In this document: positions 1-38,600 of the stretch, piece after piece
Layout: each line of letters opens with the position of its first letter
Position numbering within the stretch: position 1 is the first letter of the stretch
DNA from: Convolutriloba macropyga
Taxonomy: Eukaryota
Assembly: GCF_964194025.1 (NCBI RefSeq)
Contig: NC_134474.1
Location: 19,034,001-19,098,000 of the forward strand
DNA: 64,000 nt
Reading direction: 5' to 3'
Program-made: the position numbers and the translations under genes
The notes under the pieces: generated by a model
Database searches by the model: none
What the model was told of the DNA's origin: nothing
Seen by the model: only the letters and a program-made list of their open reading frames with translations

Positions 1-2
1 TC

Positions 3-3000
3 ATTCCAAACGAAATCTTTGAAAAAGACAGTGAAGTAATATTAACATCCTCTTTAAGTTAAGTTGCTGAAAATAACATTCTCTACATCTATGTCCTGAA
101 CATTACTGACCACCCAATTACCATAAATAAAGGCGAAGAAATAGCCAAATTTTCATTCTTAACATCAGACCAAGCTGAAAAGTTGTTAGAAGTAGATCCT
201 CAATTAATTAATGTGGCAAAAATGAGCGAAAATTATTTAACAGAAATAAATCAACTAATTCAAGTTACAGACACCCCAAAAAGAAAGGCTCAATCAGCGA
301 AACCAGCACCAAAATATGAAAAACTATGGTTCCCAACGCCTGAAACGTGCCCAGATCCGACAAACTTGTCGCCCTTGCAGAGAGATATCTATGAGCAACT
401 GCTAAAACTGCAAGAAATGGAGAAATTAGATCCAAAGGGTAATAATCAGGATAAAATAACATTTTTGAGCAAGTTTCCGTGGGAAAAATCAGCCCTTAAT
501 GATGAGCAAAAAGCAGTAGTAGGTGAACTACTAGTCGAATTCAGTGATATTTTTGCGAAACACAGATTTGACGTTGGATATAACACAGATTTGAAACTAA
601 AGTTAACTCCAGAAAGAAGCATACCAATTTACGAACAAGGCCCTCCAACGCCCGACCATTTGAGAAATGATTTACAAGTAGAGCTCGCACTAATGCATTA
701 TTACGGACTGATAACAACTTTGTCTCAATCAAGATATAGTAGTCCACTTTTCGCTCAAAGAAAGAATTCAGGAAGACTCAGACTATTAATTGACTTGAGA
801 AAAGTAAACCACTTGTTGAAAAATGACTACGTGAATACCAATTTCCCGATTTCCAATATGAGTGACGCAATAAATTACTTTGCCGGGAAAAAATTGTTCA
901 CAAAACTTGACTGTTCTCAAGCATATCACTGTGTGCAAATGGCAGACGATGTATCAGTGCAACTGCTAGCATTTAACTTTGCTTCGAGAACTTATGCCTA
1001 TAAATGTCTTGCACAAGGATTGAATAAGTCAGTAACAGGATTCAGTTCCTTTATTAGACATTACTTGGACCCATGTTTAGCATCAGGAAACTGTACCCAG
1101 TTTATGGATGATATTGGAAATGCAGTAACAAATTTTGAACAATTGGTACCCTCTTTACGAGAAATTTTTACGTGTATACGTCAATCTGGATTAAAATTGT
1201 CACCCGAAAAGTGCGAAATAGCAACTGACACAATGAAATTTCTTGGAAACAACATCAGTGCAGAAGGAATTTCACCGGAAAAAACGAAAATAACTAAATT
1301 TTTAGATAAATTTAAAATGCCAAAGACAACGAAACAAGTAAAACGATTAATCGGCTTCACGCAATTCTTCCGAAATTACATACCTAACTTAGGTGAAAAA
1401 CTAATGTCATTTTACAAGCTCCTGAAGAAGGATGCAGTAATAGAAACCACAGAAGAACATGTAAAGGCATTAGAAGTAATAAAGAAAGATTTAATGGAAG
1501 CAACAAATGTAACATTGCGATTGCCAAAACCAGGCCTACAGTATGTAATTCTTTGCGATGCTAGTTACTACGGTGCAGGTTTTGTACTAATGGTGGAAGA
1601 CTACGTAAACGAAACAGGAAAGAAAGAAAAGAAAACATACGCTCCCGTATCGTTTGAATCGCATTTGTTTAATGCTACGCAATTAAAGTTCTCAATTTAT
1701 TACAAAGAGTTCCTAGCCTTGTACTATGCGCTGGACTACTTTTCACACTACATTTGGGGATCAAGTAAACAAGTAATTATACTCACTGACAACAAAAGCC
1801 TTACACAATTCTTTCAGTCAAAAGTAATACCGCCATCACTTTGGAACTGTTTAGACAGAATACTTTCCTTTAACATAGTAACTGCTCACATTCCTGAACG
1901 CGCTAATTACGCAGCCGTTTTTCTCTCGCGAATGGAGAATGACAAATCAGCAACAATGTCTTTAAAGTTAGCAGACAGAATTCCAGTTAAAGAAATAGAA
2001 ATTGACACAGAAGCACAAAACCCTGATGTAGAACTAAATGTGTTATTTGATACTGAAGGCCTCGGTGACGAAATAAACGAAGACGAAGTTAACTTTCTTA
2101 AAAAACTAGGAGTTTATGAGGATTACAAAAAGCGACAAAATAATAATCCAATTACAGAAATCCAAGGGCTATTAAAACTTAAACGAAAACACGAAATAAA
2201 TTCAATTGAGTACCCAAATCCATTAGATGAGTTCCCAGACCTTACAGACAACTTAATTAGCCTTAACTTAGCAGATGAGCAGCAAAAAGATGCAGATATT
2301 AGAATAGTAATAAGCTGGATTCAACAAAACAATCAACAACCAGACTTAAAGTATGCTACAACTAACTGAAAAAAGTATTACAAACATTTAAACAGATTAA
2401 TTCTTGAAGGGAATGTCTTATACCGGAATTTTTATGATGATACTGGAAAAGTACTTCATAAACAATTCTGTGTACCTAAGCATTTGTGGAAAGAGACTAT
2501 ATACAGACTCCATAATTCACAAACAGCAGGACATTTAGGCATTAAAGCAACAATTCAGGAATTCAGAAAGCGATTTTATTATCCAGGCTTCACTGAACAT
2601 TTCATTAGCTTCATCAAAAACTGCCTCACTTGTCTTCAATTGAACAGAGTACCGAAAAGCCACATCACACCGAAACTGCAACCAGTCAGTTCACTACAAT
2701 CATATCCAGGAGATATGCTCCAAATTGATTTAGTAGGCCCCCTAAAGTCATCGCAATATAAGTATGTTTTGAGTGCAATAGATGTTTTCACAAAGTACCT
2801 ATTCGCAGTTCCATTAACAAATGGATATGCTGACACAGTAGCCCGAGAACTAGTAAAGGTGTTCTTCCAACACAGCTACATTCCCCAAACGATGCTTAGT
2901 GACTTAGGAACCAATTTTACTTCTGAATTAATGTCAGAATTAGCAAGTTTATTAGAAGTAAAGCTAAAACATGCCTCACTAAAGCACCCTCAGACTATCG

Positions 3001-5012
3001 GAGCAGTAGAACGATCTCACGGACCACTGAAACGAATTCTGAAACTTAATACAGAAGAACAATGGAAAGACTGGCATAAATATGTTCCTCTTGCAACCTT
3101 TATCCATAATACTTCATATCATTCAGCGACAAATTGTGGTCCTTCAACTCTATTCCATGGCAGAGAACCCATAAAACCCCTTGACATACGGTTCTCCAGA
3201 AAAGTAATGGATGCAGTAGCAGTAAATTCCGATTTTGTAAATGAACTGCAAGATGCCATGATGCAAAAGTTTGGAGAAAACAAAGAAAAATTAACAACCG
3301 CATACTTGAAGTACAAAAAGTATTATGATCAAAAAGCATCAGCAAAACCGATTCTGGAGAAATCATTCTGTTTACTTTTAAACCCTAAGCTATTAGAGCA
3401 ATCAACAGTAATAGCTTCCCAAGTTCAGAAATGGCTACCGCTATATAAAGTGGAAAAAGTCCTTACTGATTCTAATTACATCATTCGAAAAGTAAATACG
3501 AATTACACCCAATGTGTTCATCGAAACAGATTGAAACCAATCCAACCAAGTGAAACTCCTGAAGACCTCGAAGTCATCAATCCTGTAAACTTTCATCCTG
3601 ATCCGTCGAGAAGACAACACATGGAACCTGACCTATTTGATAAACATATCCCAGAATTAATCAATGAGCAAGAAACAGAGATACAACAATCCAAGAAAGT
3701 GAAACAAGATCCAGTCAGAGTGACCATAAATGTTCCCCTAGGTGGACCACTAGCAGGACCAGCAGTAGCAGCACCTCCAGCAGCCCCACCGGCCCCACCA
3801 AGGGTAGTAGCACCAGCAGTTAGACCACGAACTGCCCCAGTCCACCTTCCAGTATTTGATTCCTCAAGTTCAGACGAAGCAATCCCAAATTTATTTGATG
3901 AAAATAGCAGTTCAGATGAAAATTTAGCTGACCTAAACCTGGACGCAGAACAAATTGCCCGAATACCAGTTAATCCGTTAATTGCTGACGAAATTAGACA
4001 GCAAGAACCAGAAGTTCGTGTTCCTCTTGTATCATCCTCATCAGACGATGAAATGTTTCTACCATTTCAACAGCCACAACCATCAATAGTACCATTCGAT
4101 ATTGAATCGCCTCCAGAAACGCACGAAGAACAATTTGCTTTAACTGATAGAAAAATAAGAGCCAGACCTTATAACCCAAAACGAAAACCAGAGAAAAGTT
4201 CATTCAAATCAACAGACTACCAACAGCGGAAAAATGTACGCGGATTTAAACGTGACAGAGAAATAATGTTGCATAAAGAAGATAGAACAAACCCTTACCT
4301 AACCAACCGAGTTAGAAGATCAGGCAGTCCTAGACCAAAAAATGCACGTGCCAGACTAGAACAAGAAGAAAAACGCGAAGCAATAAAAGCATCAGCACAA
4401 GCAGCACAACAGTCAACTACCCCAAGTAGAGAGACAAAATTAGATCAAGTAAGAGCTAGCATAGCAAAATATTCAGGGAAAAAGCCCAGCAGTTCAGCAA
4501 ACAAACCAGTAACCAGATCTCAAACAAAAAACTCTTCACCAGGCTCTTCAAATCAAAACTTAAATCACTTTAGTCAAGAAATAAATGCAACTTATCTAAG
4601 TTCACCAACGGATATCTTATACTCTCCACACTCTTTTGCACACTGTATATCAGCAGACCTTGCAATGGCAAAGGGATTAGCCAGACAAGTCAAAAGCTGG
4701 TACCCAGCAGCCCCAAGTGCAATTAGACTTAGATATCCACCTGCTATCGGCTCAGTTTTAATTTACTTCGACCCCATTTCTGAACGTTACATCTTCAGTT
4801 TAGTTACAAAATTCAGACACTACCACAAACCCACTTACGAATCTGTATAAGCAAGTCTTTATGAACTGAGAGAAATAGTAATAGATGCAGAAATTACACA
4901 CTTAAGTCTTCCAAAACTCGCTAGTGGCTATGATAAATTGGATTTTAATATCATTTTTGAGCTTATATGTCAAGTCTTCGACCCTCTACCTATAACCATC
5001 TATATCCATTAG
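3..5012 (+). pseudogene. pol: pol polyprotein (RT, RNase H, integrase, disordered linker, macrodomain) in one frame broken by three premature stops
   Basis: ORFs 183-2369 and 2484-4850 share a frame; in-frame stops at TAA 60-62, TGA 2367-2369 and TAA 4848-4850; natural end TAG 5010-5012. RT motifs RLLIDLRKVN, LDCSQAYH, LAQGL, FMDD (1101-1112). RNase H motifs CDAS, KEFLA, TDNKSL. Integrase H-x6-H...CLTC, IDL, SDLG-x35-E, and a GPY/F-like KWLPLYKV...VHRNRLKP. Confidence 0.95.
4590..5012 (+). other. TARG1/OARD1 (Poa1p-like) macrodomain at the pol C-terminus, split by TAA 4848-4850
   Basis: Translation FAHCISADLAMAKGLARQVK...YIFSLVTKFRHYHKPTYESV*ASL...ITHLSLPKLASGYDKLDF...ITIYIH is colinear with OARD1 motifs LAHCISED.RMG.GIA, YYLITK...HKPTY, LSMPRIGCGLDRL and ITVY. 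Confidence 0.87.
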
Positions 5013-5099
5013 CACGTACAGACCCAGTACAGTCCAGTATTACCCTCCATTAGCCCCAGAAGCCCAACAAGCCTAAGCAACTTAGCCTTAAAGCCCAAA

Positions 5100-8000
5100 A
5101 ATCGCCAAAAATTCGAAAATTTTCGACCTCAAAATCCAGTTATTTTGATATATCTCCAAAACTACTTGTCCGAACCTGGATTAACCTATTGTTCTGAAAA
5201 GCCCTCATCCAGTAGAAGCGATTCCAGCTATAATTGACCCCTCTCGACCCGTTCTAGGTACCCAAAACTTAGCCTAAAATTGACCTTTCCGAAAATCCTA
5301 GGTTCACTTCAGAAAAATAGTCATAAAATTGTGAAAAATGCCCCGATCACCCCAAACTTTTGCGCTGCAGCATTTTTCAAGCCGAGGAACCGACCTGCAA
5401 ATTTTGAATTGATTTGGAGAACTTTAAAAATTGAGTGACGCTGGAGCCCTCAATTTTTGACACTTTTCGAATCCGCTCGAATTCAATGATAACTCCCACA
5501 AAAAACCCCCAATTGACCCATCTTATAGCCCTAGATCATCCTACTGCTCACGCTTGACATCCCAGTACCCAAAAATCCTGTCAAAAATCATTAAAAGTTG
5601 AGTTATGACAAAAATACCGAAACCTATCAAAGTGCGTTAAAATTGATTAAAATGTAGTGTAAATTATATCCCAAAAACATGCCAAAAACTGTCCCAAATG
5701 CCTCCAGCAGCTACCCCCAGCTGCCACCCTCATGGTACAACCTCAAACAACCGTTAAAACCAAATATTTCCAAGTATATGTTGAAAAATGACGAAAAAAC
5801 GAAAATTGCGCTTCTGCTTCAATCCTCCGCTTCAAAAATTTTGTCATTTTATTCTCCACCTGACCCGATAAAAGCCACCTATACCCCCTACAACCCTAGT
5901 GCAACCCACTAGCTTTGTAGCACCATAAAAACCAGTCCCAGCTCATCCCAGTATCAACCATGAAGACTTAACCCAAATAACTCTCAAAACGCCACAATTT
6001 TGTCAGAAAAAATCCAGTTATTTCCCACTAGAGTCAAAAATATTAACATCTGACAAAAATTAACCATACCATCAGCACGCCCATATCTATAGCTCTCAGA
6101 ATATGCACTCCCAGCCCCCTAGTGCCAATATAAGCTGAGAAAAGACTGCCAAAGTAACGAAAGTCACAAAAAATCGAGTGAAATTTCCGAAAAAAGTGAT
6201 CAAACATGCATCTTAATACCCGAATATGGCCAATTTTATTATTAATTCAGTTAGCCCCACTCATGAGCAGTCCAACCATAGCAATATCAATCATTCTGAA
6301 CAAGTTTTTTATAGCCTCATAGCCAATAACCTATCCCCTATCTGAGCCTTTTCAAAAAACCCAGGTTCACTACAGCAAAAACGTTATAACTCGTGAAAAA
6401 ATAGTTGAAACTGCCCAAATTTTTGCGCTGCAGGGTTTTTTGAGCCGATAAAGCGGTTCACCAATTTTGAGCTCAATCGGGGCAATTTAAAAATTGAGTG
6501 ACGCTGGGCCCCTCAATTTTGGAGACTTTTTGAAAATTCACGCACATGTTCATAAAATCCAAAATATTGATTGAAAATCCAATATTATTAGCTTAAAACA
6601 TCCGAATGCTCAAGCTCTACACGCTCATTTTAAAAATATTGAAAATTTTTAAGTAAAATGTTGAAATAATAGCAAAAAACTGAAGCCTACCAAACTCTTC
6701 TCAAATTCGTCAAAACAGAGCCAAATTTAGAATATAAAAATAGTATCAAATAGCCGAATTATGAGCCCATATCCAATATTCAGTCTCCCTAGTAGTTACC
6801 CAAGCCCAATAAACCCACACAACTGCCAGAAATTCATAAATGTTGAAAAAAGTGAAAAAAATCGAAAATTGCAGATATTTTACAAAATTTTGTCCGAAAT
6901 TCTAAAGTGAAAAACTCAATATATTATTGTCAAATAATGCATTAAACTACACCAATAGCTGCCACCAACATAGTACTCACTAGTATGACCCACAATTACT
7001 GTCAAAAATCAATTATCTTCAATCTATGTCAACTTATGTACCAAACTTGACGCTTCATAAGTAAAAATTCAGTACATTTCACAGAAAAACTGGTATAAAA
7101 CCTAAGTTAATCAACTCCAAACCTACCAAATGCTACCTCTGATATTCACAGATATCAGTAACAACAGCTAGCACCTGATTTAGGCCACTAGAGAATCACC
7201 AGACCGACACATGTCTCGAAGAAGCTCAATTAGTGGAAAAATCATGCTTGAAAATTCGCATTTTGGACCCAAAAATCAACGTTATGACCCGATAAATAGC
7301 TTCAAACCCTATAATTCAGTAACATACATTAGTACCAAGCACAGAAAGTACCATTTTAACCATTCAATACCGATAATGTATGAACAGTGACGACTTATTC
7401 AGACCGAAATTTCATGATCCAAAAATAGCCAGGTTCAGATCACGAAAACAATCATAACTTTGCGAAAAATGCTTAAATTGCGCCAAATTTTTGCGCTGCA
7501 GGGTTTTTTGAGCCCCTGAAACGATCTACCAATTTTGAGCCCAATCGGAGCAATTTAAAAATTGAGTGACGCTGGAGCCCTCAATTTTTCGCATTTTTCG
7601 TTTTTTCAGACATCAGTAAAAAAGTTGACCAAAAAGTTTCCAAAAACCTGAATTTTTTGCATAGTGATTCCCCACCGATGTCTAATGAGTGGGCCAAGCC
7701 AAAAAATTTGCCCAAAGTTCAACAAAAATTGAAAAATTCACATATTTGCCACACTAGCCCTGATGCGGAAAAATGACCAAAATTACGAAAAAATTACATG
7801 TGAAAATTAGTACCAAATACTCTTCCAAACCAGTCCAAATTACACACAGGTGCTGCTAACAACCAGGACAAGTATCTAGAACCATTAAAACCAGTCTATG
7901 ATCAATAATTGACAAGTAAATTAAAGGTAATGCCCAAAAATCAAAAAAGTCGTTATGTCACCAAAATTTCACTTTCACAAATATGTCATTATAAAGTCAC

Positions 8001-8100
8001 ACACTGCAATAAAAATGTTACCACATGCTCACACACTTCACAGCTGCTAGTTCAAACAGTCTAAACCAATTAACAAAGCTACAATTGACAAATAATAAGT
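5100..8100. repeat. About three diverged ~1.06-kb tandem units, each with a conserved ~160-bp core ending in a 33-nt hairpin
   Basis: Cores GGTTCA...TTTTGCGCTGCAG...AAAAATTGAGTGACGCTGG(AG/GC)CCCTCAATTTT at about 5301-5458, 6364-6521 and 7432-7589 (hairpin offsets 1063 and 1068). Flanks of copies 1 and 2 also align at offset about 1062 (5537/6599, 5776/6838). Confidence 0.8.
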
Positions 8101-8159
8101 AAAAACTCACCTATAAATGAAACTAAACTACATGATGGATATAATTGCACCGACACTAG

Positions 8160-9644
8160 TCAATTCTCATCGGCGCTATCCTCAGCTACGGTACCACAAC
8201 CACTAGTACAATGACCGGACTGACCCCTTGTCCTAGTAGAACGAGTCACGTACCGCTCAGCATCGTCCAACCTGTTTAAATGTCAATATAATACACAAAA
8301 AGCCTCAAAATTATATGAAAAACACGATAAATCTTCACAAAAACAGTTAAATACTCACTTTGGAAAGTCTACGATTGGCTCACAATGGTACCGATACTCA
8401 TTGTCGATGAATTTCCCGATGCACTGGATCAGTACAGCAGGAGCGGTGGTTTGAGCATTGATAGAATGCCTGTAACACACCCAGCCGCCCCCCATTTCCT
8501 CAGTATACTGCCAATAAATATTGACGTTGCATCCCAGGAAAGAAGCCATGCCGACAAACTAATTAACAAAACCTCAAAGAGTACCTACCTACACATGCAC
8601 ATATCAAAATTAACAGTAATTACAATAAAACTTTACCCAGAACTCGGCCAACGACCCATTATCTTCACTCTCAGCAATCTCATACTCCGACACAAAGTAC
8701 CCTAACTGGTCCTTTACAAGCTCAGAGAATCCAGGCGAACGCATCTTGGCCACAATAGCCAAGCGTAGAGCGCGAACGTTATGCTTGGGAACCTTCTTGT
8801 CTGCAACAAACCAAACAAATGTGAATTAAAGTAATAAACTTAGTAAAAATTGCGACAAAACACAACAAATACCTGACTTCCGACCAGTTAAAGAGCAGTA
8901 GTACAGAGCACTGAGAGCACACAGACCACCAACTTCGGCCCTCACACCAGCCGCACCGAGCCATTTTGGAGTTTTGAATGACACTATGTCCACATGCTCA
9001 GCATAAATGTCATTGTAAAACTCGTACCCCAATTCGGCACACACATTTGCACGAAGATTTGTGCAGTGCACCTCTTTGCCGAACATCTTCTTCACGAAAC
9101 ATGGCACACGCTCACGATTAGATCTAAACAATAAGCATACACCACTTCACAACTAATAAAATACTACAACTACTACACAAACTAAAGAAAAACAAATAAA
9201 AATATAAATAACTATTATAAATATATGCAATTACCTTTCAACAGCGGCCTGCAATCCTCCCATTGACCGTGGAAAGAAGAACCCAGCAGCTTTCAGGCGT
9301 TCGACTTGTGACCTCACACGAGTAATGTGCTTTGCAGAAGCACTAAACCCAACATGAAGCGAAGCCAACTCCTGAGACACCATCTGCTGAGTTGGAATTT
9401 CCTTCTCCTGAACTTGCATCTCGCTGCCCACCTTCACTTCCACTTTGTACATCAACACCTCCCGATGTACAGCCAATTCTGATGTTCCCACGTTCTTTGT
9501 CCCCAGTACCATATGTTCTGCTTTGTCCCGATAAGCTCGTCGCTCCTCAGATGACCGAACAAATGATGGATACATCCATTCAGACTGAGACAACGACTTG
9601 CTTCGCAAGAAAGTCAGAAAATCCTCATACTGGGCAACATCCAT
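8160..9644 (-). CDS. Antisense 5-exon accessory gene, 378 aa, C-terminal half OTU-like cysteine protease (putative deubiquitinase); exons 9644-9235, 9123-8873, 8800-8637, 8558-8359, 8271-8160
   Basis: Four GT-AG introns (111, 72, 78, 87 nt) with T-rich acceptors and matching phases (2,1,0,2) join the exons into one stop-free 1137-nt frame. OTU-like spacing: EVGGLCALSAL...LTG (Cys 8921-8919), ALRLAIVAKM, MASFLGCNVNIY...GWVCY, YHCEP (His 8387-8385). The intron 1 acceptor could instead give an exon start at 9144 (same frame). Confidence 0.75.
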
Positions 9645-10161
9645 GATTCACAATAACTATCTGAAAGTTTCAAAATTGAGTCAAACTAGTTATTAAGCGA
9701 GCAGAAAACTAAAGTGTTAAGTCAAAAATGAACAATCACAGGAATGAAAACACACAAACAGAACAAACTACGCAATAACTGCCAAGGACATTTAAATACC
9801 ATGCTATAATGACCGCTAATAGTTAATAACACATGCCGCAAAACACACAACAACGTTTTGAAGACACAATTACACCCTTCACTAGCATTCACTTATTTAC
9901 TACGCCTCTCTAATTCTTCCTTTTGTCCCCTACTTATATCCTCAACCCCCCCCCCCCCCCACAAAACAAGTCTTGATATATTAATTACTACCATATTACT
10001 AGCACCATGTACGAAGTATATTAGTAGCACCAGTCAATTTTACATGTAAAACTACAATATTACAGTCAGTCCCAATAGTCCTTACACAGTCATATTGATA
10101 TTACTATTACACAATATTACAACTATTAAAATAGTTAAATAAAATAAAAATAAATAATAAG

Positions 10162-10566
10162 TCACACTGAATCTTCCTCGACAGCCTCCCCTGACCTCCC
10201 CACTTCCCTCCTCCTCCTCCTTCGATTTGCCCACACTCCCAACAATCCAGATACTAATGATAATAATAAAAAGAATACTAATATAATAATAATCCACCAC
10301 TCAGTCCCACCCCCACTCCCATTATCAATAACTATATCATCTACTGCTGTCATATTGCACTTTGGATGTTTCAATCTTGACCAGTGAACAGCGTTCCTTC
10401 CAACAAACCTGGTCCCATTCACACAGCACCCAATAATTATGGCAGAAACAGTGATATTAAAGCACATGGTGCAATATTGTGGGCAAAATAATCTGAAAAA
10501 CTCGAAAAAAACATGTAAAGACTGCATAATTCGACCCCCCCAACCACTACCCCCATCATCACACAC
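10162..10566 (-). CDS. Antisense ORF or terminal exon for a small single-pass membrane glycoprotein; 5' end unresolved
   Basis: Cys-rich segment with four N-X-S/T sequons (NIT, NGT, NMT, NGS), then a 24-aa hydrophobic helix WWIIIILVFFLLLSLVSGLLGVWA followed by NRRRRRR. A strong acceptor TTTTTCAG ends at 10493. Confidence 0.5.
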   Translation of the reverse strand: MCDDGGSGWGGRIMQSLHVFFEFFRLFCPQYCTMCFNITVSAIIIGCCVNGTRFVGRNAVHWSRLKHPKCNMTAVDDIVIDNGSGGGTEWWIIIILVFFLLLSLVSGLLGVWANRRRRRREVGRSGEAVEEDSV

Positions 10567-10852
10567 CCATCATTCAACCAAATAACCACACTTCAACATG
10601 TTTAAACACCATATTCAGTAGTAATATCAATAAATACACACATCAGCACACATCACCTAAAAGTAAAGTACACCTGAAATAAACAAACATCACATAAACA
10701 AGTACCATATTGAGAAAACTAGATCTAGAAGCCCGAGTAAAAGTAAATAAATGAGCAAATAAACACCGGAAGACCAAATAGAGCCAGTTGAAACACTCAG
10801 AAGAGCCACATCAGTAGAAGATTGTCCTGAAACATAGTCGATATATTGAAAT

Positions 10853-13765
10853 ATGAAAATGTTACTCACAATTGTGTTGAATCTCTTACTTTTCGGCCCC
10901 ACTTTTAAAACCCCGAATAATACAGAAGCAGCTCTGGATAAAGGCATCATCTTCCATAAAGAAGGAAAGATTCTGATTACCGAAAAGTTCATAAATGTGG
11001 AATTTTTAGTACCGTTTCCTCGCTATAATTTCACTATCAGACAACAAGTAGAGACTCTACTTAATGAACTCTCCAAAAAGTGGATCACGCAATCAGAGTT
11101 TTGCAACTTGACAGACAGCACTACATATTGGAATCAAACAGACGCCTTCAATGTTGATTGGCTTTACACAAGGATACTCAATGAAACAATAGAAGCCGAA
11201 ATTGAAGTCCTTAAATTACGCAACGAGACTGAAAAACTCCTTACCAGAGTCGAAGAAGACCCTCACAATCGACAAAAACGAGCCGCCCCGCTTGCAATCG
11301 CAGCCGCAGTCGCTGGAATTGGACTTTTTGGTCCAGGAATCGCAATGAGTAGCGGAGGATGCGGTGGAATTACAGGAATCTTCGGATCTTGTCAGCGAAC
11401 GTCCCAAAATGCTGAGAACATCGACAGATTAGCCAACAGTTTCAACAGCCTCAATGACTATGTAATGGAAATTGGCGCACAAACTGATGAGAAATTCTTC
11501 CTAGTTGCTGACGAACTTGCAAAGGTTTACAAAGTTCAAAACGAAATGCAAGAAAACCAGAACAGAAACTGGAAACTAGTAGAGGAACAATTTGCAATTG
11601 TAGACCATAATCTGAATGCACTAGCCACCTGTATGGAAATTCAATTATCACAGCAACAATTGAACTTTAACTTTGATACAGCAGCCTCATTACTTCTTAC
11701 TCTTTATGCAGATATTAAAAGTTACAGAGCAGCCTTATATTCTTTTCGAATTAATGTTATAAATGCCATTCCTACTTTGCTTGACAAACGTCTTCCAATC
11801 TCTTTAGTGCCTCGTAAATCTTTGATAAAGATCCTTGATTCAGTCCATGATAGCCAAAAGAACGCCCCAGATCGTCTAACTTTGGCAATACCCATGACTG
11901 ACATACTTTCGTACTACGATGCGAAATTAGTACAAGAGATTTCGACAGTTGAAGACGGACTTTTACTGACATTAGCCATTCCCCTAGCCTCTAGCCAGAC
12001 AGTGTTCGAAGTTTATCGTGCAATAGTAATCCCTATGCCTCAGAAGGACTCCGTAGATGCCTTACGATATGTAATAGAGGGAGAGTACTTAGCAATCTCC
12101 GAAGGACAGATGGAAACCACAGTACTGACGAAAACTCAGTATGACAACTGTCTTGGATCGCCACGATACCGAATCTGCCATGAGACAATGGAAACTAGTA
12201 GAGGAACAATTTGCAATTGTAGACCATAATCTGAATGCACTAGCCACCTGTATGGAAATTCAATTATCACAGCAACAATTGAACTTTAACTTTGATACAG
12301 CAGCCTCATTACTTCTTACTCTTTATGCAGATATTAAAAGTTACAGAGCAGCCTTATATTCTTTTCGAATTAATGTTATAAATGCCATTCCTACTTTGCT
12401 TGACAAACGTCTTCCAATCTCTTTAGTGCCTCGTAAATCTTTGATAAAGATCCTTGATTCAGTCCATGATAGCCAAAAGAACGCCCCAGATCGTCTAACT
12501 TTGGCAATACCCATGACTGACATACTTTCGTACTACGATGCGAAATTAGTACAAGAGATTTCGACAGTTGAAGACGGACTTTTACTGACATTAGCCATTC
12601 CCCTAGCCTCTAGCCAGACAGTGTTCGAAGTTTATCGTGCAATAGTAATCCCTATGCCTCAGAAGGACTCCGTAAATGCCTTACGATATGTAATAGAGGG
12701 AGAGTACTTAGCAATCTCCGAAGGACAGATGGAAACCACAGTACTGACGAAAACTCAGTATGACAACTGTCTTGGATCGCCACGATACCGAATCTGCCAT
12801 GAGACAATGGAAACCCACCTTGGATTCTCCTCGTGTCTAGCAACCTCAAGTTCCATCACACAATCTCAGCATTGAAAGTATGTGATACAGAGAAGGTTGT
12901 GTTACCCAACCCTGAACGAGCACAGAACCTTGGATACGGAATTTGGCTCCTAACATCAGCTTAAAGTGATTATACCCTTAGTGAGATTGGTACGGATGAA
13001 AATGGCCGACACATCAATGTTCCTCACAAAGGTTGTAACATCTGTTTAATCACATTAAAATGTGGACATACAATGTTCAGTGACAACATTAAGGTTCGAG
13101 CTGATTTACAAAGTTGTCAGTACCTTCCAGCAACCAGAATTAATGTTAAATTACCAGATCCACTTGCACACTTAATTGACTCAGTACCTAACATAAACGA
13201 CCTTCCAAAATATGATTCCAGTACTGAAGCAAACCTCGATTTATTGAAGAATGTTATAACTGAATTTATTTACTCGAATAGAAAGTTATCAACAGAGTCA
13301 CTAGATGCTATAGCAAAGCCAATTACCACTGAAATGAAGTTATTTAAACCAGCACTAATTGACAAACTTGAATCTTACGTTCCGATCAAACTTTCTCTCT
13401 CGTTAACAATCATTGTCTTTATCGGAAATCTAGCCCTACATATTCTCTTCATGTTCTTATACCATAAAGTAGCCTTTGTACGACGAATGGTACCGAATTT
13501 CATGAAGCTTAACGGAACCAATGTACCGCTAAACCCAGTAGTTTCCGTACCCAAACATCTGAAAGCAGATGTAGTCACAACTCTAGCCAAACAACTCAAG
13601 CAACCGCCAACAGTCATTTCCCCAGAAGAACTTGGAACCCTCAAACGACAACGACGAAATTCCATGCCTGCAACTTCTACCATATCACTCAATACCATGG
13701 ACCGATTTAACACAGACGATGAACTGGACCACCAAGCTCAGCCCCGAGATGAAAGTATTCTTTAA
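10853..13765 (+). pseudogene. env: env, class I F-type fusion glycoprotein (baculovirus-F/paramyxovirus-F-like architecture), disrupted
   Basis: Signal peptide MKMLLTIVLNLLLFG; furin site RQKR (11270-11281) followed by fusion peptide AAPLAIAAAVAGIGLFGPGIAM; heptad region; Cys-rich CLGSPRYRIC...SSCL...GCNICLITLKCG; TM LSLSLTIIVFIGNLALHILFMFLY; cytoplasmic tail. Lesions are a 619-bp duplication, a frameshift at about 12845 and TAA 12962-12964. Confidence 0.9.
11570..12814 (+). repeat. 619-bp direct tandem duplication inside env
   Basis: 11570-12188 is repeated at 12189-12807. TGGAAAC occurs at 11570, 12189 and 12808. One difference seen (G12056 vs A12675). Confidence 0.95.
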
Positions 13766-14320
13766 GTTCAAGTAAATCTTATATAGTTTGACAAGTATTA
13801 TTCTCTTAACAGTTCAAATATCCCTTCATTCATTAAGTCCTATAAATCAGTGCTCTATCCATGAAAACAACTAGTGCTTTAAACCATTCATTCAACCAGT
13901 ATCCTTCTTATCCTGCTTTTAACAGTTTAGAGCCATTATTCAAAGAAATAACCATGATTATTTCCAGTGCTAATTCAATGTCTCCTCTTAATCTTAACTT
14001 TAAACTTATGTCTTCACTCTTTACTCTGAAATTAGCGCACTTTCACATCTTTAACGTTCCTTCAAATCCTTAATCTTGTCTTAACTTTCCTCACCTTAAT
14101 CTATATCTAAATTTGTCTCAACTTAAACTTTGTTCCTCCTAACTTCATTAATTGTCTTTAACTTAAATGCTTTCGTTCCTAACACTTTTCTAAGAAAACA
14201 TAAATTGGGTGGCTCCAACAAAAATATTTTTATAACCTCATACTCGTGCAGATTATATGTTTTATAGAAAAATTGTAAAACCCCAGTTCTTTCACTAAAA
14301 TTTTCATGGAAAATTTTCAT

Positions 14321-14332
14321 AAAGTCGGGTAG
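14321..14332 (+). promoter_or_regulatory. Candidate polypurine tract
   Basis: AAAGTCGGGTAG directly precedes TGTCACG. It is purine-rich but imperfect. Confidence 0.4.
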
Positions 14333-15197
14333 TGTCACGCCCCTATTTCGTTCCTTATAGTTTCGTGATGATATTCCTTAAATATCCATAAATAAGTGCT
14401 ATAAATTAGTTCATATTCAGTTAGTTTCAAGGCCACGTATAGCCAGTATTTCCATCTAGGCCTGTAACCCCGAATTTGTTTATGTTTATGAAAAACAACC
14501 GCAGATTGACAGGTTTTACTAGCAAACACTTCAAGTGCCTAAAAGCCTCAATATTTACTTTTTTGAGTTTCTTGATGATAAATTCACATAATCAGTAAAT
14601 AACTTCATGAGAGATTATGTACTTGGTGAAGTAATTATTCTGATAAAGTAGGTGCTAATACGGAATTGTATATGTACTGAACAAACACCAAGAGACGTAC
14701 AAAAGCCGGAAATCGCCCTACTTGAAATTCAGTAAATATTTGCGAAGGACCAATACAACTCAAGGCACAATCTTGCGGAACCCACTATCACCAGAACACC
14801 GGAGAACCAGCCTAAAAATCAGTTGCCTATCAACTCATAAAACTTGATAAAACTTGAGAAACTTCTTGTTAAAATTATTAAACAATTCTTGCTAAAATAA
14901 TTAAAGATTGAACTGGAAATTCTCTTGAAAACCGCCAAGTTTGATAAACTAAGTTACAGATGAAATATCGACTAACTTAACACTAAAATGCAAGGCAAAC
15001 TAGTGGATATATCACGCATCTGAACCGCTCAATAAAAGGCTATTATTAGCTAATTTTATTCAAAATATATCTGCTAAAAATCGCACTGTGAAACACCAAA
15101 ATAAGTCCTTGTAAAATGCCAATTATTCAAGTAAATTACTTCTAATATAAACCTCAATAGCACCACGAGGAACACTATTAAAAATCAGTGCGTAACA
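14333..15197 (+). repeat. Candidate 3' LTR (865 bp)
   Basis: Starts TGTCACGCCC and ends GTGCGTAACA (8/10 inverted match, TG...CA), with AATAAA at 15031. The 5' LTR is outside the window, so the call cannot be confirmed by pairing. Confidence 0.7.
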
Positions 15198-16687
15198 TGA
15201 GGTAATATGCTTTTTTCATGACTAGAATACAATGCATTCCTGTATTTTTTTACAGCTTCTTTGTCTTTTTTTCTCTCGTTTTCAAAATGTATAATAAAGG
15301 GCCGTGTACACCATCCGGCAACAATGGACGTAGGTCTGAAAATAGGGGATGATGAGTAGCACTTAGCCGGATGCTGTACTCCAAGCTGTTCCCCTCCAGA
15401 CAGTGTAAAGACGGCCCAGTCACAAAAATAACTAACAAGTGGAGAGGATAATGAAGGAATAATATATCATGACCAAAATAATGAAGGAATAATGCATCGT
15501 GACCAAAATGGAAGTATTTATTAGAAAAGAAATTATCAATTAGGATCAGATTTGGAAAAATTTGAGTGTCTTGAATAAGTATAAGATTGAATTGACAACT
15601 CAAATTGTTTTTGTTGCTATCTATATTCTACAGGACTGAAGTGCATTTCGTATCTATTCGACAATCTACCGAATGTTATATTTGGTATCAGGACTAATTT
15701 GGCGTTTAATTAATATTCTGCTTTAACTTTGCTGTAAGACAACTTTGGGTCTTTGCAGTAATAGAAAAGTGAGTAAAGACATTTAACTCTTAAATTTGAA
15801 TACACTTTGACAAATTAAGTTGATCGTGTTGATATAATCGACCTTATTGCTCATTTTTGAGGTGAGTGTTCAGTTGCTAGGATAAATTAACATGATTTCA
15901 AAACGGCCACTATTTGATCAGGTTCTGTCAGCGAAGAGAGGAAACTGGAAGACTGCGAGAATGGAACAACGAAGGAATATTTTGATAAAAAGTTTGCAGT
16001 ATCGAACACTTTTGGTGGCGAAACTTTTGATAGCTACTGTTACACAGATGACCTATACATTGTAAAGTGTTGTCTTGAAGATTGGATGGGTGATAGTGCA
16101 TCTGTCATTACCAGCTACACGATCAATGAGCTGTGAGTTTATTGCTGTTGCTTCTGTGTAATTTGCGTGCGTAACAGCTATCGAAATTGCATGATGCGCT
16201 TGAATGCTAAAACGTTTCTGGCATGATTAACTTAAAGGGCGAAGAGCAGAGTACTGAAATACGTATTAGTATTGATTAATTACTATCCGACGAAGATTGC
16301 AGCAATTCCTTAAGTACTAAATTTCTCTTTAAAGCAATTTTTTCTGGATTGATTCCTTAACTGACCAAAATGACTTTTCGTCCTGAAAAACGAGATGAGC
16401 TGGTTTAAGTCTCAATGCATTAAATCCCTATGCAACTCTCTTAGAGATTAAGCGAGCTCTTAGTGTACGGTTCATAAAAACTTCTCTGATTAAAAAAATT
16501 TACAAAAAAATGATTAAGGTACACAATATAGACAGGCATTCCCCTAAATGAGCTGATGAGAAGAAAAAGGAGTATTCAAAGACATAGTTACCTCGGGTTG
16601 AACGGCAAAATTTTCATATTGCTTCAAAATGTTAGCTTCTTTAAAAACAGTTCTAATGTAAAAGCTATAATGAGTCAAATTGAACAA

Positions 16688-17983: not shown

Positions 17984-18499
17984 TTAATAGCCGCCCTCAT
18001 CTTCTCAGCCGGCTATTATAGCGCTCCTATTTTTTTACTTCGTCGAATAAAAAAATGTTTCCCTTTACCTCATTTTGCCGCCTTTTCAACATTTTGCGTG
18101 AAATCTTTTTGACTTCTCTAGGCTAGTTTCTCTCTTCTTTCATTCTGCTAAAAGTGATTTTGAAAATCAGTTGCTCAGCAAAGCAATTCAAAATGAACAG
18201 AGTTAGTACAAAAATGGATGTCAGAAATAGAAAGCCCAATTTTAGATGCCCGCTATTTGAACGTCGTTCCTATAAGTCTTATTTACCATCTCTAATGCTT
18301 ATTGTTATTGATAGTAGCCCCTGTAGCCTCTCTCTAAGAAACAGAAGTATGTTCAACTACGAAATGCCATCAAAATAAATCGGACTTAAAAATGTTTTTG
18401 TACAAAAATCTTTTTTTTTCAATGTCTCTTCTTTCAATCCCAATCATGCTTATTGGAATCAACGGCGGCTATTTTCCGGCAATCTGCCGGGTATGTTTT
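17984..18499 (+). mobile_element. Helentron-type non-autonomous element (HINE), family GGCGGCTATT
   Basis: 5' AATAGCCGCC (17986-17995) is inverted at 3' GGCGGCTATT (18464-18473), followed by hairpin CCGGCA-ATC-TGCCGG and GTATGTTTT, with T runs at both ends. Confidence 0.7.
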
Positions 18500-32627: not shown

Positions 32628-35600
32628 TTGATGCCGCACTTCAGCTGCTGTTATGTCGCGTAATCTTATCATCTATTATCCTCATTAACGCTGAGTTATA
32701 GTAGAAATTTTTTTATCATAAATGACCTAACAAGCACTTTTTAGGAAATTATTGTTAATCGCTCTCAAAAGCACTTTGTAGCAAATATATTAATCCTGTC
32801 TGTCTTTTATGCAATTTTTTGTTTGACCGATTTTTCGTCTGACCCATTTGACTTTAGTTTTCAGAAACGGAAAAAGAGGTAGCGCCCAGTGGGCATTAAG
32901 TTCTGTTAAAGCCTTTCAGTCCGCTAGTCTTCAAGTATGCGATTCACAGAAAATGTTTTGGAGACTTATACTTATGGCGTGAAGGGCGGTTCTTTGATCC
33001 CACACCCCCATCCATCGCCTTCACATCAGTCCCGCAATCCACTTTTGCACCCTCGCTTTGGTGCACCCCCACTGCACTCACCTTACGCCCCTTCAGTTAA
33101 GTTAAAGCTGGCCTCACTAAAACGTTGCTAGCTACTGACGAAGCCAACCGATTGAGAGCAATTCGCCCGACGTTAGTCGGTTATGTTTTAAGATGTTAAC
33201 TGTTTTTTTTGGGATTCTCTTTATATCAGTTCTTTGTGCTGTGACTTATTCTCATTATGGACAGGTCTAATTGTTTGTCTTGTCAGACTCTTTTTGATGA
33301 ACTTGAAGGTTTTTATTCATATCGAACTCCTTAAACAACTTTGATCCTACTCGCTTGAAAAAAGTTTTTTTTTGATCTTGCCGCTTTTTTGTCATTTTGT
33401 TTTGTTATTTAGTCTCATCAATGGTGGGTCCCACGGGGCCATTATTAGGTCTTTTTTTTAGTTAACCCTAATGCTTTCTTTTTGACACAGAAGGTTTTAA
33501 CAACTTTTATGCGACTTTTCAAAAATTGTTGGCGATTTTTTTAATTTTGCGAATTCTTTTTGGTTGCTTTTATTGTTACTTCACTTAGGATCACCAACGA
33601 GATTCTCATTGGCTCTACATCAGGTTGTATTTGAGCCCTCTGTGATGAATCTCATTTAAATCTGGTGAAATATTTCTACTTATAGCTAACATTTTCCACG
33701 ATTTTGACATGTTCTTATAGCTGCGAAGCTGTAAGCTGAGCGTAGCTATATTGCGGTGCTCTTGGTTTTTTACGACTCGAAGAGGAGTATTGGTTTTCTT
33801 GATTTTTTTTTTTAAAGGAAGCATATTTGTTCACGCGGCATTTTGACCTAAAAGCGAAACTGAGAAAAGCTGTCTCGGTGAACAGATTTTCGCTAAGCGG
33901 GAGAAGTTTTTTTGATCATGCGCTTCGTTTAGTGAATGACTTTTTGACTTTGAAAAGTAGTTTTTGACTGAATGGCACATATAGATAACCGTTTTTAGCC
34001 GGTTTTTGGACTAAATGGCCCAATTTTTTTGCTTTTAATTTGGTTTCATATAGCAATAAAGTTTATTCGATACTATATTGAAATGTCAACCTCTGAAATT
34101 GATACCACAGTGTTTTGCAGAGCCTGAGAATGCGTTTCAAATTGAAAATTGGCACATATTTCTTAATTTTATAGTTAATTCGTTAATTCTTGCCTTTTTT
34201 TCTATTAATTTCTTCGTTTTTGGATCTTTTAACCGTCTTTTTTTTTTATCAAAAATCAGTTAATATGGCAACTTCTCTTTGGTAATTCATATACTCAACG
34301 CCTCTTTCTACATCGATGTAATTTTGTTTTATAAAATTTACATATGCTAATCCGATTTTGGTAGTTTTTTCCGATTTTCGTCAGTTTTTTGTTTGTTTTT
34401 TTTTGTTGTAATTGCTAGAAATAGTCTTTTTGTGCAACATGAGGGACTTTAATTTCCTTTCAATAAAAATTCAATCATTTTTTTTGGCGTTAGGTTTTTG
34501 AAAAACATTTAAAACTTTCATAAATGCTGGCTTAAAAGTGTTTTGACCATTTTTTTGCAAAATGTTTCAATTTTTCGTATTTTTGAGTTCTTCTTTTTCC
34601 TATTTTTTGCTCTCTTCAGGAGAATAAATCTTTGTATTGGATGATTAGTTATCTTTTATGTCTTGAAAGCTGAACAATGAAATGTATTCGTTTTTCTTGA
34701 ATTTTTTATTGATTTAAAAATCTAGAATGTTTTTGTTACGGTGTTCTTCACTTTGTGCCCATATTCTTCACATTCAAGTTATTATCTTTCTAACTTTGTC
34801 ATTGCACCTACATTTATTTTCGGTATATTGATTTTTTCAGTTGTTAAAAATGTATGATTTTGGTCAGAAAATGCTTTTTAGATTTTCGTCATTTCTTTGG
34901 TTTGCATTTGATTGCATTCAACATAAGGCAGTACTGAGAGTTTGATAGCAAGCCTTTTCCGCAATTTCCACATAAGACTATTAACTGCAACTTTGTTCCG
35001 GCCTTGGTATTAAATCAAAAGATTTTTTTGCCTTTGAATATTCTTCTGCTGCTTATGTCTTTTCTATGATCAATTTAATTTTTGAATTAGAATGAAATCA
35101 TGTTGTTTAGCATTTGTACAACAAGGAACAAGTGTGTGTTGTTTTTTGTCTTAATCGCAGTGATTAGAAGTGTAATTATAGTTGTTTTCTGATTCTTAAA
35201 TTTGAGTTTTCTTTTTTGAAAAGATTTTACTTAGTTTTATTTAACTTAGATTTTTATCTGCCGTTTGCTTTCGCAATCTTTTTCAGATTAAAATCATGAA
35301 TTATTTGAGGGCAGTTGATAGCCTTGTCAGCTTTTTCAGTCTATCACTTTCTTGACCACTTTAATTATTTCGGTTTTTTAACGTTACCAAACGTTTTCAA
35401 TGATATAAAATTTTGCTGCATTTTGTTTCTCTTGGTGACAGTGGTATAAGTTTCACCAATTTTTAGAGCAGACCTGGAGAGGTAGTGAGTTAATGGTTTA
35501 ATACAAAGAGTTGTGGCTTCCGCTGCAATTACAGTTTTGTTAGTGGAATTTTGATGCTTCGAGTCGCTTCCGGAATTCTTCCGGCTATGTTTTTTGTTTC

Positions 35601-38600
35601 GTCGTCTGACGCTCTTTTTTCGTTTTACATTTGTTCACACAGCAAAGCTGAAAAAGTCAAATTTTCTGAATGACTTCTTCCTCTCACTAACGGCATTTGC
35701 GCGCGTGACGTTATTTCTCACTCGCTTTAGCGAAAGTTTTTAGGTTATTTGCGTGATTAGATTTTGATCATACGTGACTTACCACACTCACTAAAATGAT
35801 TTTAGCACTTTAAAGCTTAAGTTTAATTTGAATTTGTTTAAGGTCAAAGGAAATCATATGTGCAGTAAAGGTCCCTAATAAGAGGCTTCTGTGGGATGAA
35901 TTTTAACAGGCTTTATTAATTTATCGCTGAATGTTTTTTAGCCTAGTTTTTTGAGCGGCGTCATTTTTTTTCAATTTAGATCTGTATCTGTTTCTATCTA
36001 TTATATGGCACGCATGACTATTCTTTCGCAGCTATTTCGGCAATCTGCCGGCTAAGTTAAAACTATTGTTGATTTTTTGAGATTTTTGCCTTTTCGAATT
36101 GTTTATATTGTCGTTATGTCGCTCATTCATTTTTGAGAAGTCTCATTTGCTTTATAATTAGGAATTAATGAGTCCACTTACTGGTTTCAGATCACTGCTA
36201 ATATTGACTTTGACTTTTTCGGCATCCAAGATAGTTTCATCCCTTGTGGTCCGTTCAGACAGACGTTATCACATGCTTTTTTGCGCATGTAGCCTTAAAC
36301 TTTTGATTAAATCCAATTAGTTATTCTTTGCATGAAATTCTTTAGCCAAAAGATCAGCTACTTCCAACTTAAATTCTTTGCCAACATTTGTTTTCGAGAG
36401 TTGCTGTAATTTTAGTCGTTTTTCGAGAGTTGCTGTAATTTTAGTCGCTGCCTACATTTGTTGCTATTTTTGTTTCCCAAAGGTTTTCCTTAATTTTGTC
36501 ATATGTTTTCTATTTTTGGATAGTGCGATAGATGTCCGAGAGTTCAAGTTTTAGTTGCTTCTTTCAACGACTTTGATGCCACTTGTTTTCACAGACTTCT
36601 TAAAAACTCACAAATATTTGTTGTTGTCCTTTTATGTCTCTCAGTGGTTTCCTACAAAGTTGGCATTTGCCGCTTTAACTCCCATTGTGCAATAACCTTT
36701 CGAATTTGTTGTTGTTGGACATGAAAACTTCCATAACACTTCCATAAGAACTCCCACAAAAATGTTTTTGCTTTTAATTTCCTGTCCTTGTTCTGTTTCT
36801 TTCGTGGGCTTCTTTGTATAAGATTTGAACCGTCTTGGAACGGTTCTTTAAAGGAGTGTGATTGTATTGTCTTCATTTTGTACATTCCTTTGAATTGTGA
36901 TTCATGTTTTTTATTCTTCGTCTTCGTTGTTTCGTTTCGAAAAAGTCTAAAAAATTTTGAATTACTTCATCTCACGGCGCGTGCGCACGTGACATCGTTT
37001 CTCATTCTCTCTAGAGAAAAATTTAGGTCACTTGTGTGAAATAATTTAAGGTCAAAGGAACTCATATATGTAATAAAGGTACTCTTTAAAAAGGCTTCTG
37101 CGGAGTGAATTTTATCAAGCGTTATTCATTTATCGCTGAATGTTTTTCACATAGCTCTTTGAGCGGCGTCGATAAATTTGGTAGCTATTCCGGCAATCTG
37201 ACGGCTATGTTAGTAAATGATCTCACGAGGTGGAATCATTAGCATTCCAAAACTTTCCGATGAACCAAGTGGTCGAAAAATCTTAAAATCCTTTCTGTTT
37301 CTGAAAGCAAAATCCCACTTGTTACAAGATGCTGGCGAGATTTTGAATCTGCTGATACATATGAAATTACATGTTGAGAACCTTTGTTTTTATCGCCGTA
37401 GTAATTATTGGTCCAACTTGTTTGTGAATGTTTTATCCGTAAAACAGCTTCCCAGTAAACTTGTCTTACTGGTCTTGTTAGCTCAAATTGAAGTTCTTTA
37501 TCGAACTAAAAAGCGGCGAGCAGATGTTGAAATTGAATATAGTATTACAGAATTAATGGTTTATATTGTTGTTATGTCGCTCATTCATTTTTGAGAAGTC
37601 TCATTTGCTTTCTAATTAGGAATTAATGAGTCCACTTACTGGTTTCAGATCACTGCTAATATTGACTTTGACTTTTTCGGCATCCAAGATGGTTTCATCC
37701 CTTGTGGTCCGTTCAGACAGACGTTATCACATGCTTTTTTGCGCTTGTAGCCTTAAACTTTTGAGTAAATCCAATTAGTTATTCTTTGCATGAAATTTTT
37801 TTAGCCAAAAGATCAGCTACTTCCAACTTAAATTCTTTGCCAAAATTTGTTTTCGAGAGTTGCTGTAGTTTTTGTCGCTGCCTACATTTGTTGCTATTTT
37901 TGTTTCCCAAATGTTTTCCTTAATTTTGTCATATGTTATCTATTTTTGGATAGTGCGATAGATGTCCGAGAGTTTTAGCCGTTTTTTGGACTAAATGGCC
38001 CAATTTTTTTGCTTTTAATTTGGTTTCATATAGAAATAAAGTTTATTCGATACTATATTGAAATGTCAACCTCTGAAATTGATACCACAGTGTTTTGCAG
38101 AGCCTGAGAATGCGTTTCAAATTTAAAATTGGCACATATTTCTTGATTTTATAGTTGATTAGTTAATTCTTGGCTTTTTTTCTATTAATTTCTTCGTTTT
38201 TGGATCTTTTAACCGTCTTTTTTTATCAAAAATCAGTTAATATGGCAACTTCTCTTTGATAATTCATATACTCATCGCCTCTTTCTACCTCGATGTAATT
38301 TTGTTTTATAAAATTTACATATGCTAATCCGATTTTGGTAGTTTTTTCCGATTTTCGTCAGTTTTTTGTTTGTTTTTTTTTTGGTTGTAATTGCTAGAAA
38401 TAGTCTTTTTGTGCAACATGAGGGACTTTAATTTCCTTTCAATAAAAATTCAATCATTTTTTTTGGCGTTAGGTTTTTGAAAAACATTTAAAACTTTCAT
38501 AAATGCTGGCTTAAAAGTGTTTTGACCATTTTTTTTGCAAAATGTTTCAATTTTTCGTATTTTTGAGTTCTTCTTTTTCCTATTTTTTGTTCTCTTCAGG

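Follow-up and report, generated by a model that had tools for sequence, protein, structure and literature searches.

An env-bearing Ty3/Gypsy clade of Convolutriloba macropyga with a macrodomain on pol and antisense genes between pol and env

In this work we analysed a 64,000-nucleotide stretch of Convolutriloba macropyga DNA (hereafter the window, G000:C7:19034001-19098000), which opens with the 3' part of an env-bearing Ty3/Gypsy element. Comparison with relatives in the same genome shows that this element belongs to a clade of complex, env-bearing Ty3/Gypsy elements that share the layout gag, pol with a macrodomain, an antisense cargo gene, an antisense gene for a small membrane protein, and env. 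In the window the cargo slot holds a spliced gene that likely encodes a divergent OTU-like, ubiquitin-removing protease; in sister families it holds another antisense gene, whose product is with good probability JmjC-like. Our overall reading, held with about even confidence, is that the cargo enzymes and the macrodomain would erase silencing marks and integration-damage marks in the nucleus.

The whole element measures 19,347 bp (G000:C7:19029851-19049197), with an internal region of 17.6 kb, and its gag-like open reading frames (ORFs), aspartic protease and 5' long terminal repeat (LTR) lie upstream of the window. A sequence-only reading of the window had proposed more than 15 kb of one "giant" element; the extent was right, but the adjective does not hold, since the internal region is below the bar of more than 20 kb used for giant transposons (Arkhipova and Yushenova, PMC6431247; here and below, published work is cited from the parts of each text that were available) and sister families reach only 13.6-14.0 kb. 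The LTRs are 865 bp long, begin with TG and end with CA, and are identical at 861 of 865 positions (99.5%, four differences); the 3' LTR is at 14333-15197 (+), and the 5-bp target-site duplication (TSD) TGAGG stands on both flanks, at 15198-15202 (+) and to the left of the 5' LTR. The sequence TGGTGACAGGAG, which resembles a primer-binding site (PBS), directly follows the 5' LTR of the window element, and the PBS-like TGGTGACAG is common to families A-C. The pol order is protease, reverse transcriptase (RT), RNase H, integrase, as in Ty3/Gypsy (Metaviridae). RT and RNase H occupy 63-2369 (+; RVT_1 E 2.5e-21, RT_RNaseH E 2.6e-17) up to an in-frame stop, and integrase (H2C2, rve and p58 C-terminal parts, from Pfam and ORFs) with a long low-complexity linker occupies 2370-4571 (+). 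The window copy is defective, with in-frame stops at 2367-2369 and 4848-4850, frame breaks in gag-protease, and an env-like gene (10853-13765, +) broken by a 619-bp tandem duplication (11564-12195 / 12183-12814) plus further frame breaks. The env-like protein matches Pfam Baculo_F at E 4.5e-5, below the cut-off, and its sequence starts in a signal-like way, contains an RQKR site with a hydrophobic stretch behind it, and shows a transmembrane (TM) peak; a PDB profile search of env returned nothing relevant. These features suggest that env is likely of the F type.

As the earlier reading had noticed, pol and env are separated by about 5.8 kb, more precisely by 5.84 kb (5013-10852) in which two antisense genes are found. 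This region is present in sibling copies: in a search of the 1.18-Gb assembly, 10 of 37 matches (the window itself included; 21 of 466 candidates scored) cover the entire 4300-11200 query at 91-100% identity. All eight siblings whose ends were examined have paired LTRs, 98.5-99.8% identical, and six of them have a 5-bp TSD; of the remaining two, one runs straight into another internal region and one is without a TSD. Exon 1 of the antisense cargo gene has at least 149 matches in the genome, and of 20 more divergent loci selected with it, nine carry integrase, macrodomain, four exons, TM ORF and env in order. Further families, found with a distant relative as query, have an RT-RNase H region 61-65% identical to the window, and 11 of the 12 distant-family loci carry RT, integrase, macrodomain, OTU exon 4 and env. 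Families B and C (the two examined) are 13.56 and 13.95 kb long, with LTRs and TSDs of their own and the same PBS start, so that the modules lie between paired LTRs with TSDs in these families as in the six siblings. Colinear siblings, related families and paired LTRs with TSDs rule out a private or nested insertion of the pol-env region. A small RT tree also separates the window clade from aphid elements and two other pol proteins. Neither RT nor the JmjC-like cargo found a match when metagenomes were scanned. Two kinds of variant copy were observed beside these: at L012 (G000:C1:44552900-44559790) the TM ORF is 38% diverged from the window and its neighbours just 2-6%, which suggests that this ORF may have been exchanged between subfamilies; and L019, L026, L029 and G000:C7:63224966-63231239 consist of tandem partial repeats of element segments with periods of about 1.9-5.5 kb.

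The ratio of non-synonymous to synonymous substitution rates (dN/dS), computed in pairs that always include the window copy and are hence not independent, is 0.07-0.37 across every module. It is 0.18 for integrase, 0.10 and 0.29 for the macrodomain, 0.12-0.19 for env and 0.16 and 0.20 for the antisense membrane protein gene, and the exons of the cargo gene are in a similar range (0.07-0.37, with 0.07 and 0.15 for exon 3). As judged from these ratios, all modules are under purifying selection.

The proposal of a TARG1-type macrodomain fused to pol is confirmed by profile comparison. The domain forms the C-terminus of pol at 4572-5012 (+), with 4572-5009 in frame with integrase, and its best PDB match is human TARG1/OARD1 (4j5q, E 4.3e-15, residues 17-145); the Pfam Macro model does not match it. 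The Lys and Asp of the TARG1 catalytic dyad (PMC7050489) are aligned in the window as Lys84 and acidic residue 125, a numbering derived from their 41-residue spacing. The genome contains at least 150 macrodomain matches, and because 10 of the 150 scored lie in frames of at least 1,800 amino acids (aa) the domain is genuinely fused to pol. The dyad is retained in 12/12 close copies and is intact in family E, which carries the JmjC-like cargo. The domain is a predicted ADP-ribosylhydrolase. Against this activity stand families B-D, in which the TARG1 motifs are degenerate, the acidic motif is gone and only the Lys is left; ADP-ribose removal is thus not common to the whole lineage. The earlier idea of a complex metavirus lineage that erases two host marks survives as regards the single lineage and is weakened, in families B-D, as regards the macrodomain. 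The same genome contains a second macrodomain capture, in an unrelated Gypsy (L073:2181-7454 (-), L075) that has a Pfam Macro domain upstream of an RT 23-24% identical to the window; no env match was found in L073 or L075, and macrodomains are therefore not tied to env. A 131-aa antisense ORF is present at L073:1204-1596. In other pol proteins the macrodomain precedes integrase (P0061, Sipha flava) or follows it (P0062).

The antisense cargo gene of the window has four exons on the minus strand: exon 1 (9644-9235) for an N-terminal, HHCC-like domain with two invariant His, exon 2 (9123-8873) for the CxxC of a putative zinc finger, a linker and the candidate catalytic Cys (codon 8921), exon 3 (8800-8637) for the helical part of the OTU domain, and exon 4 (8558-8355) for its beta-strands, with the candidate catalytic His (codon 8387). 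Together they give 342 codons without a stop, interrupted by GT-AG introns of 111, 72 and 78 nt. Among 82 introns mapped at 32 loci, 74 have GT-AG ends and 39 a length not divisible by three; introns 2 and 3 diverge by 15-25% and exons 3 and 4 by only 3-5% (L010, L012); and the intron-2 donor is at an identical position in the three distant families examined. These observations exclude a decayed single ORF in place of introns. Contigs from four sequencing runs read across the introns with no joint at them, a result that bears on expression in neither direction. The host genome itself has spliceosomal-type introns, as well as PARP, JmjC and OTU genes.

The sequence-only reading had called the product of this gene an OTU-like protease, and the present analysis agrees. 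A profile of exons 2-4 built from five families aligns with six Pfam-positive host OTU domains over 119 columns (hhalign probability 91.4, E 9e-7), with Cys and His in register and a score of 45 versus a maximum of 24.7 in 40 shuffles, and an hmmsearch with this OTU profile, on a small decoy set, returned host OTU domains as its four best matches. The candidate catalytic Cys is found in 26 of 31 mapped copies and the His in 25/25, and both are among the best-retained residues across families that are about 30% identical. In the Foldseek search, 32 of the 35 listed rows are OTU or deubiquitinase entries, some of them viral OTUs, and the top two VIA matches, over exon 4, are Otu2 (Z 4.4, root-mean-square deviation (rmsd) 4.1, 62 aligned) and OTUD1 (Z 4.3, rmsd 3.2, 63 aligned). 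Several points weigh against this assignment: the D-x-x-C of OTUs is replaced by GGLC in family A; the AlphaFold model of the antisense protein, made with two introns read through, has a pLDDT (per-residue confidence) of 45.6; the best Foldseek E is 0.053 and no row reaches 0.001; the VIA Z for the OTU fold is only 4.3-4.4; and Pfam (in single-exon scans), the PDB sequence search and Atlas gave no OTU match. Weighing both sides, we consider an OTU fold in the C-terminal half of the protein to be very probable.

The N-terminal part bears on where the gene came from. Its two invariant His and the CxxC after them, a set that is complete in 12/12 close copies and incomplete in the window copy, align in register with the H, H, C and C of integrase H2C2, with a score (15.0) below the shuffled maximum (16.6). 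A fold search with a model of this domain (pLDDT 63) gave just generic helical matches, and the PDB profile search nothing relevant; none of 241 candidate longer proteins matched exon 1, and a HMMER search, in which an intron-containing sibling ORF was compared with 1.84 billion representatives, gave 20 matches, all short unannotated relatives. Ginger1 transposases combine H2C2, OTU and introns, and the OTU of Ginger1 and Helitrons is proposed to act during transposition (PMC2836005). The antisense gene could on these grounds be the remnant of a nested or captured DNA transposon, Ginger1- or Helitron-like, that plays no role for the retroelement, and its OTU domain does resemble host OTU domains in ORFs of about 2,500 aa, which may well be its origin. 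This passenger status is nevertheless largely refuted and seems to us very improbable: at least four families, 61-65% identical to the window in RT-RNase H, have the gene at one and the same position and with intron sites in common, the gene is under apparent purifying selection, and neither an rve/DDE core in the antisense exons nor a flanking inverted repeat of at least 25 nt was detected. As the H2C2 likeness is not significant and the fold search was blank, a Ginger1-like origin is only a lead. Host OTU domains recognized by Pfam (L034-L039, e.g. at G000:C10:43.2-43.6 Mb and C4:51.2 Mb) belong to ORFs that reach about 2,500 aa, and several of them are clustered; judging from their size, these proteins are probably of the Helitron type, and such large-ORF OTU domains are a possible source of the cargo.

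Family E, reached via long ORFs with Pfam Macro, shows that the cargo slot can be filled differently. Its integrase is 67% identical to that of the window and it has a canonical macrodomain, a TM ORF and env, with a different antisense gene in the cargo slot and no OTU exons. This gene (P0074 family) has 107 matches in the genome; antisense cargo loci of this type include L072:3904-5070 (+), L074, L084, L085, L087-L090 and L095. At seven of 14 loci analysed, integrase, macrodomain, cargo, TM ORF and env follow in the same order, at four pol is nearby and the set is incomplete, and OTU exons are found in 0/14. In 12 aligned rows, 28-41% identical to the first, a T, an H-x-E and a distal H are invariant and a K nearly so, a combination (T, H-x-E...H, K) that we take to be the metal/2-oxoglutarate pattern of JmjC enzymes, and a basic stretch near the end of P0074 resembles a nuclear localization signal. 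Alignment with three host JmjC domains placed the motif residues together (hhalign probability 46, E 2e-4). The case has its weak sides: the assignment rests on motifs and a profile match, the hhalign score of 32 versus a shuffled maximum of 24 is modest, Pfam and PDB searches with the cargo gave no match, and three of the 14 loci (L082, L083, L086) have no pol or env match within their 9-kb stretch. The open JmjC-like ORFs at these three loci could belong to another carrier element, be free copies, or reflect host co-option.

By integrase, the window family is nearer to seven JmjC-cargo loci (69-75% identity) than to the other OTU families (59-64%), and a clean split between OTU and JmjC cargoes is rejected by the integrase tree (approximately unbiased (AU) test, p 0.012; 13 rows, unrooted). 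The env tree, from which three loci were left out, does not reject such a split (p 0.195, 10 rows), which tells against exchange. Since the split is rejected for integrase and not for env, either cargo exchange or pol recombination likely took place.

That the macrodomain and the cargo proteins read or regulate, rather than erase, is another way of understanding these data. The macrodomain would tether integrase to ADP-ribosylated chromatin in the manner of a chromodomain, and the antisense proteins would regulate transcription of the element or export of its RNA. The position of the macrodomain at the C-terminus of integrase, the loss of TARG1 motifs in families B-D, the OTU of family A without its usual Asp and the HHCC-like N-terminal domain all fit, and antisense ORFs of plant Gypsy elements are thought to be regulatory (PMC7264820). 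The residues expected of enzymes are the ones that persist, namely the OTU Cys and His at about 30% identity, the TARG1 dyad in close copies and in family E, and the invariant JmjC-like metal ligands; we therefore judge a purely reading or regulatory role to be quite improbable.

The second antisense gene (10162-10467, minus strand, start uncertain) encodes the accessory membrane protein that the earlier reading had predicted, with a four-Cys ectodomain, one TM helix and a basic tail. The ectodomain contains a conserved CC-x-NG[ST] motif with an N-glycan sequon; families B, C and E have homologues with this motif at the same position, and in B and C these begin with what resembles a signal peptide. 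The protein resembles the sORF2/FAST-like proteins of the MDG1 group in its length of about 100 aa, its single TM helix and, in family A, a basic juxtamembrane stretch, but the sORF2 candidates lie in sense orientation and had been picked for N-myristoylation, whereas this one is antisense, Cys-rich, bears an N-glycan sequon and coexists with env (PMC11952523). Neither sense orientation nor an N-myristoylation motif was found for it, its N-terminus in family A being uncertain.

The rest of the pol-env gap is mostly a non-coding spacer (5013-8354) with three repeats, at 5273-5469, 6336-6532 (seen by self-comparison) and 7404-7600, whose cores of about 190 nt are 74-81% alike and about 1.07 kb apart. 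It is best read as an old triplication, and is common to family A copies; in families B-D the spacer is only about 0.9-1.1 kb. The "hairpin repeats" of the sequence-only reading are thus genuine as repeats, and stems are present in the window copy, as a stem-loop in repeat 1 and as a perfect 10-bp stem in repeat 3 (arms 7557-7566 and 7580-7589). Shuffled sequences fold as well as these 10-bp stems (z -1.39 to +0.42), and in divergent copies only 80 of 117 cells and 57 of 89 retain the stem pairs, a count that covers repeats 1 and 3 with the middle repeat excluded. Conserved RNA hairpins are thus not supported, given the shuffle test and this loss of pairs. The word best retained in the three repeats across divergent copies is GTGACG (5426-5458, ~6489-6521, 7557-7589), which we take to resemble a CRE/ATF half-site and which may be regulatory.

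How the modules might work together can be proposed as follows. The cargo would be read from a reverse-strand transcript of its own, and its introns would survive retrotransposition because, being antisense to the genomic RNA, they are not spliced from it. In the nucleus the cargo enzymes would erase host marks by which the provirus is silenced or the integration intermediate is flagged, the OTU by removing ubiquitin and the JmjC-like protein by removing lysine methylation, and the macrodomain carried by integrase would remove ADP-ribose laid by PARPs at the integration site, or only bind it in the families where it is degenerate. The small membrane protein would probably assist env in particle exit or cell-to-cell passage, the weakest step of the scheme. 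We favour nuclear erasure because chromatin and DNA breaks are where ubiquitin, lysine methylation and ADP-ribose come together, and because the macrodomain rides on integrase; TARG1 itself relocalizes upon DNA damage (PMC7050489). These related elements, then, suggest exchangeable tools against host control. The stronger claim, that the clade has a dedicated exchangeable reverse-strand cassette forming an anti-silencing kit against ubiquitin, methylation and ADP-ribose, with the pairing evolved again in aphid Gypsy elements, we advance tentatively and rate below an even chance.

To our knowledge, few animal retrotransposons are known to counter host silencing with enzymes of their own. Related families in one genome that differ mainly in their slot enzyme offer a natural comparison of which host marks limit retroelement spread, and each slot enzyme can be assayed separately. 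Placement on the opposite strand would also be a way for an element that replicates through RNA to keep an intron-containing gene.

The sequence-only reading had instead likened the element to coronaviruses, whose nsp3 pairs the macrodomain Mac1 with the protease PLpro in a cytoplasmic RNA virus. On this model macrodomain and OTU would blunt cytoplasmic antiviral signalling, that is, ADP-ribosylation by PARPs and ubiquitin chains, during an infectious, env-dependent phase, in the manner of coronavirus nsp3 and of nairovirus OTUs. In its support, every OTU-carrying family also has env and the small membrane protein, PARP-domain genes are present in the host (19 matches), the fold matches include viral OTUs, and an aphid Gypsy with RT cores 23-27% identical to the window has independently paired the same two domain types. 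The likeness to nsp3, a macrodomain and a deubiquitinase-like protease in one genome, proves loose: coronavirus macrodomains are of the MacroD type (PMC7050489) and share one polyprotein with PLpro, whereas the window has a TARG1 type and an OTU encoded on opposite strands of an integrating element. Moreover the macrodomain sits on integrase, which works in the nucleus, and a macrodomain also occurs in the unrelated Gypsy without an env match. That the slot can hold a JmjC-like gene points to chromatin and DNA-damage marks over immune evasion, and virus-style counter-defence appears unlikely to us.

The aphid elements deserve comparison with the window in their own right. The Gypsy pol proteins of Aphis glycines, A. 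gossypii and A. craccivora (P0024, P0046-P0060) also join a TARG1 macrodomain and an OTU-like domain, with a DGNC motif, but both domains are in frame between protease and RT. Their OTU-like domain aligns with host OTUs at an hhalign probability of 75 and with the window OTU at only 0.9 (0.2 with an earlier profile of four close copies); a PDB profile search of it gave nothing relevant. Because the RT cores are so distant and the OTU-like domains do not match each other, the captures look independent, and the pairing of macrodomain and OTU probably arose twice. This supports a functional logic in the pairing and removes the uniqueness of the window. We found no publication on the aphid elements, which are known from database records.

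Other mobile elements share single traits with the window, and the macrodomain of fish retroviruses, the OTU of Ginger1 and Helitrons, plant antisense ORFs and the accessory domains of Burro are each already in print. Metazoan env-carrying Ty3/Gypsy elements (errantiviruses in the wide sense) have the same gag-pol-env order, LTRs, tRNA primer site, multiple copies and a probably F-type env. In the survey by Chary and Hayashi (PMC13524379), macrodomain, OTU and antisense gene are absent from the portion of the text examined and from seven supplements searched by term; its prefilter admitted pol-env gaps of at most 1,000 nt and regions of at most 10 kb, with a manual extension of 3-5 kb in some phyla, so that an element with a 5.8-kb gap was probably missed. 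Surveys demanding env close to pol would overlook such elements. In Ginger1 and Helitrons/Helentrons an OTU also resides in a mobile element, with introns and an H2C2 finger in Ginger1 (PMC2836005, PMC6431247), but there it is fused to the transposase or RepHel, whereas the window OTU has an antisense gene of its own, lacking a DDE core, within an LTR element. Epsilon-like endogenous retroviruses of fish contain macro-domain ORFs (PMC4977317, citing Basta 2009) and are env-bearing like the window element; they are Retroviridae, and OTU is unmentioned in the part of that text examined. The plant Gypsy elements Grande, RIRE2 and Retand have a conserved antisense ORF with its own promoter between pol and the 3' LTR (PMC7264820), to which no protein family is assigned; the window gene differs in being spliced, enzyme-like, apparently exchangeable and placed beside env. 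Burro, a giant planarian Gypsy (PMC6431247), and an orchid Gypsy with an m6A demethylase (PMC9289625) also carry host-modifying domains, some ubiquitin-related or demethylase; these are other domains, mostly in the sense polyprotein, and Burro exceeds 30 kb. Nothing closer was present in the accessible parts of 10.1101/2021.11.30.470311, PMC5408684 and PMC11952523. The earlier suggestion that the combination is undescribed stands for the layout, which we did not find in the open-access literature (Repbase, Dfam, GyDB and subscription journals being outside the search), and falls for the pairing itself, given the aphid elements.

Beyond the element, the window contains repeats of other kinds. 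Positions 33993-45829 form a complex array of near-identical segments, unrelated to the element, with spacings of about 1.4-4.0 kb and many segments 97-100% alike. Positions 50813-61631 are an almost perfect tandem duplication, whose period is about 6,276 bp and which is either recent or an assembly artefact. Finally, a dispersed family of 71-nt repeats, 61-85% alike, is found at 18429-18499 and in seven other places up to 61631.

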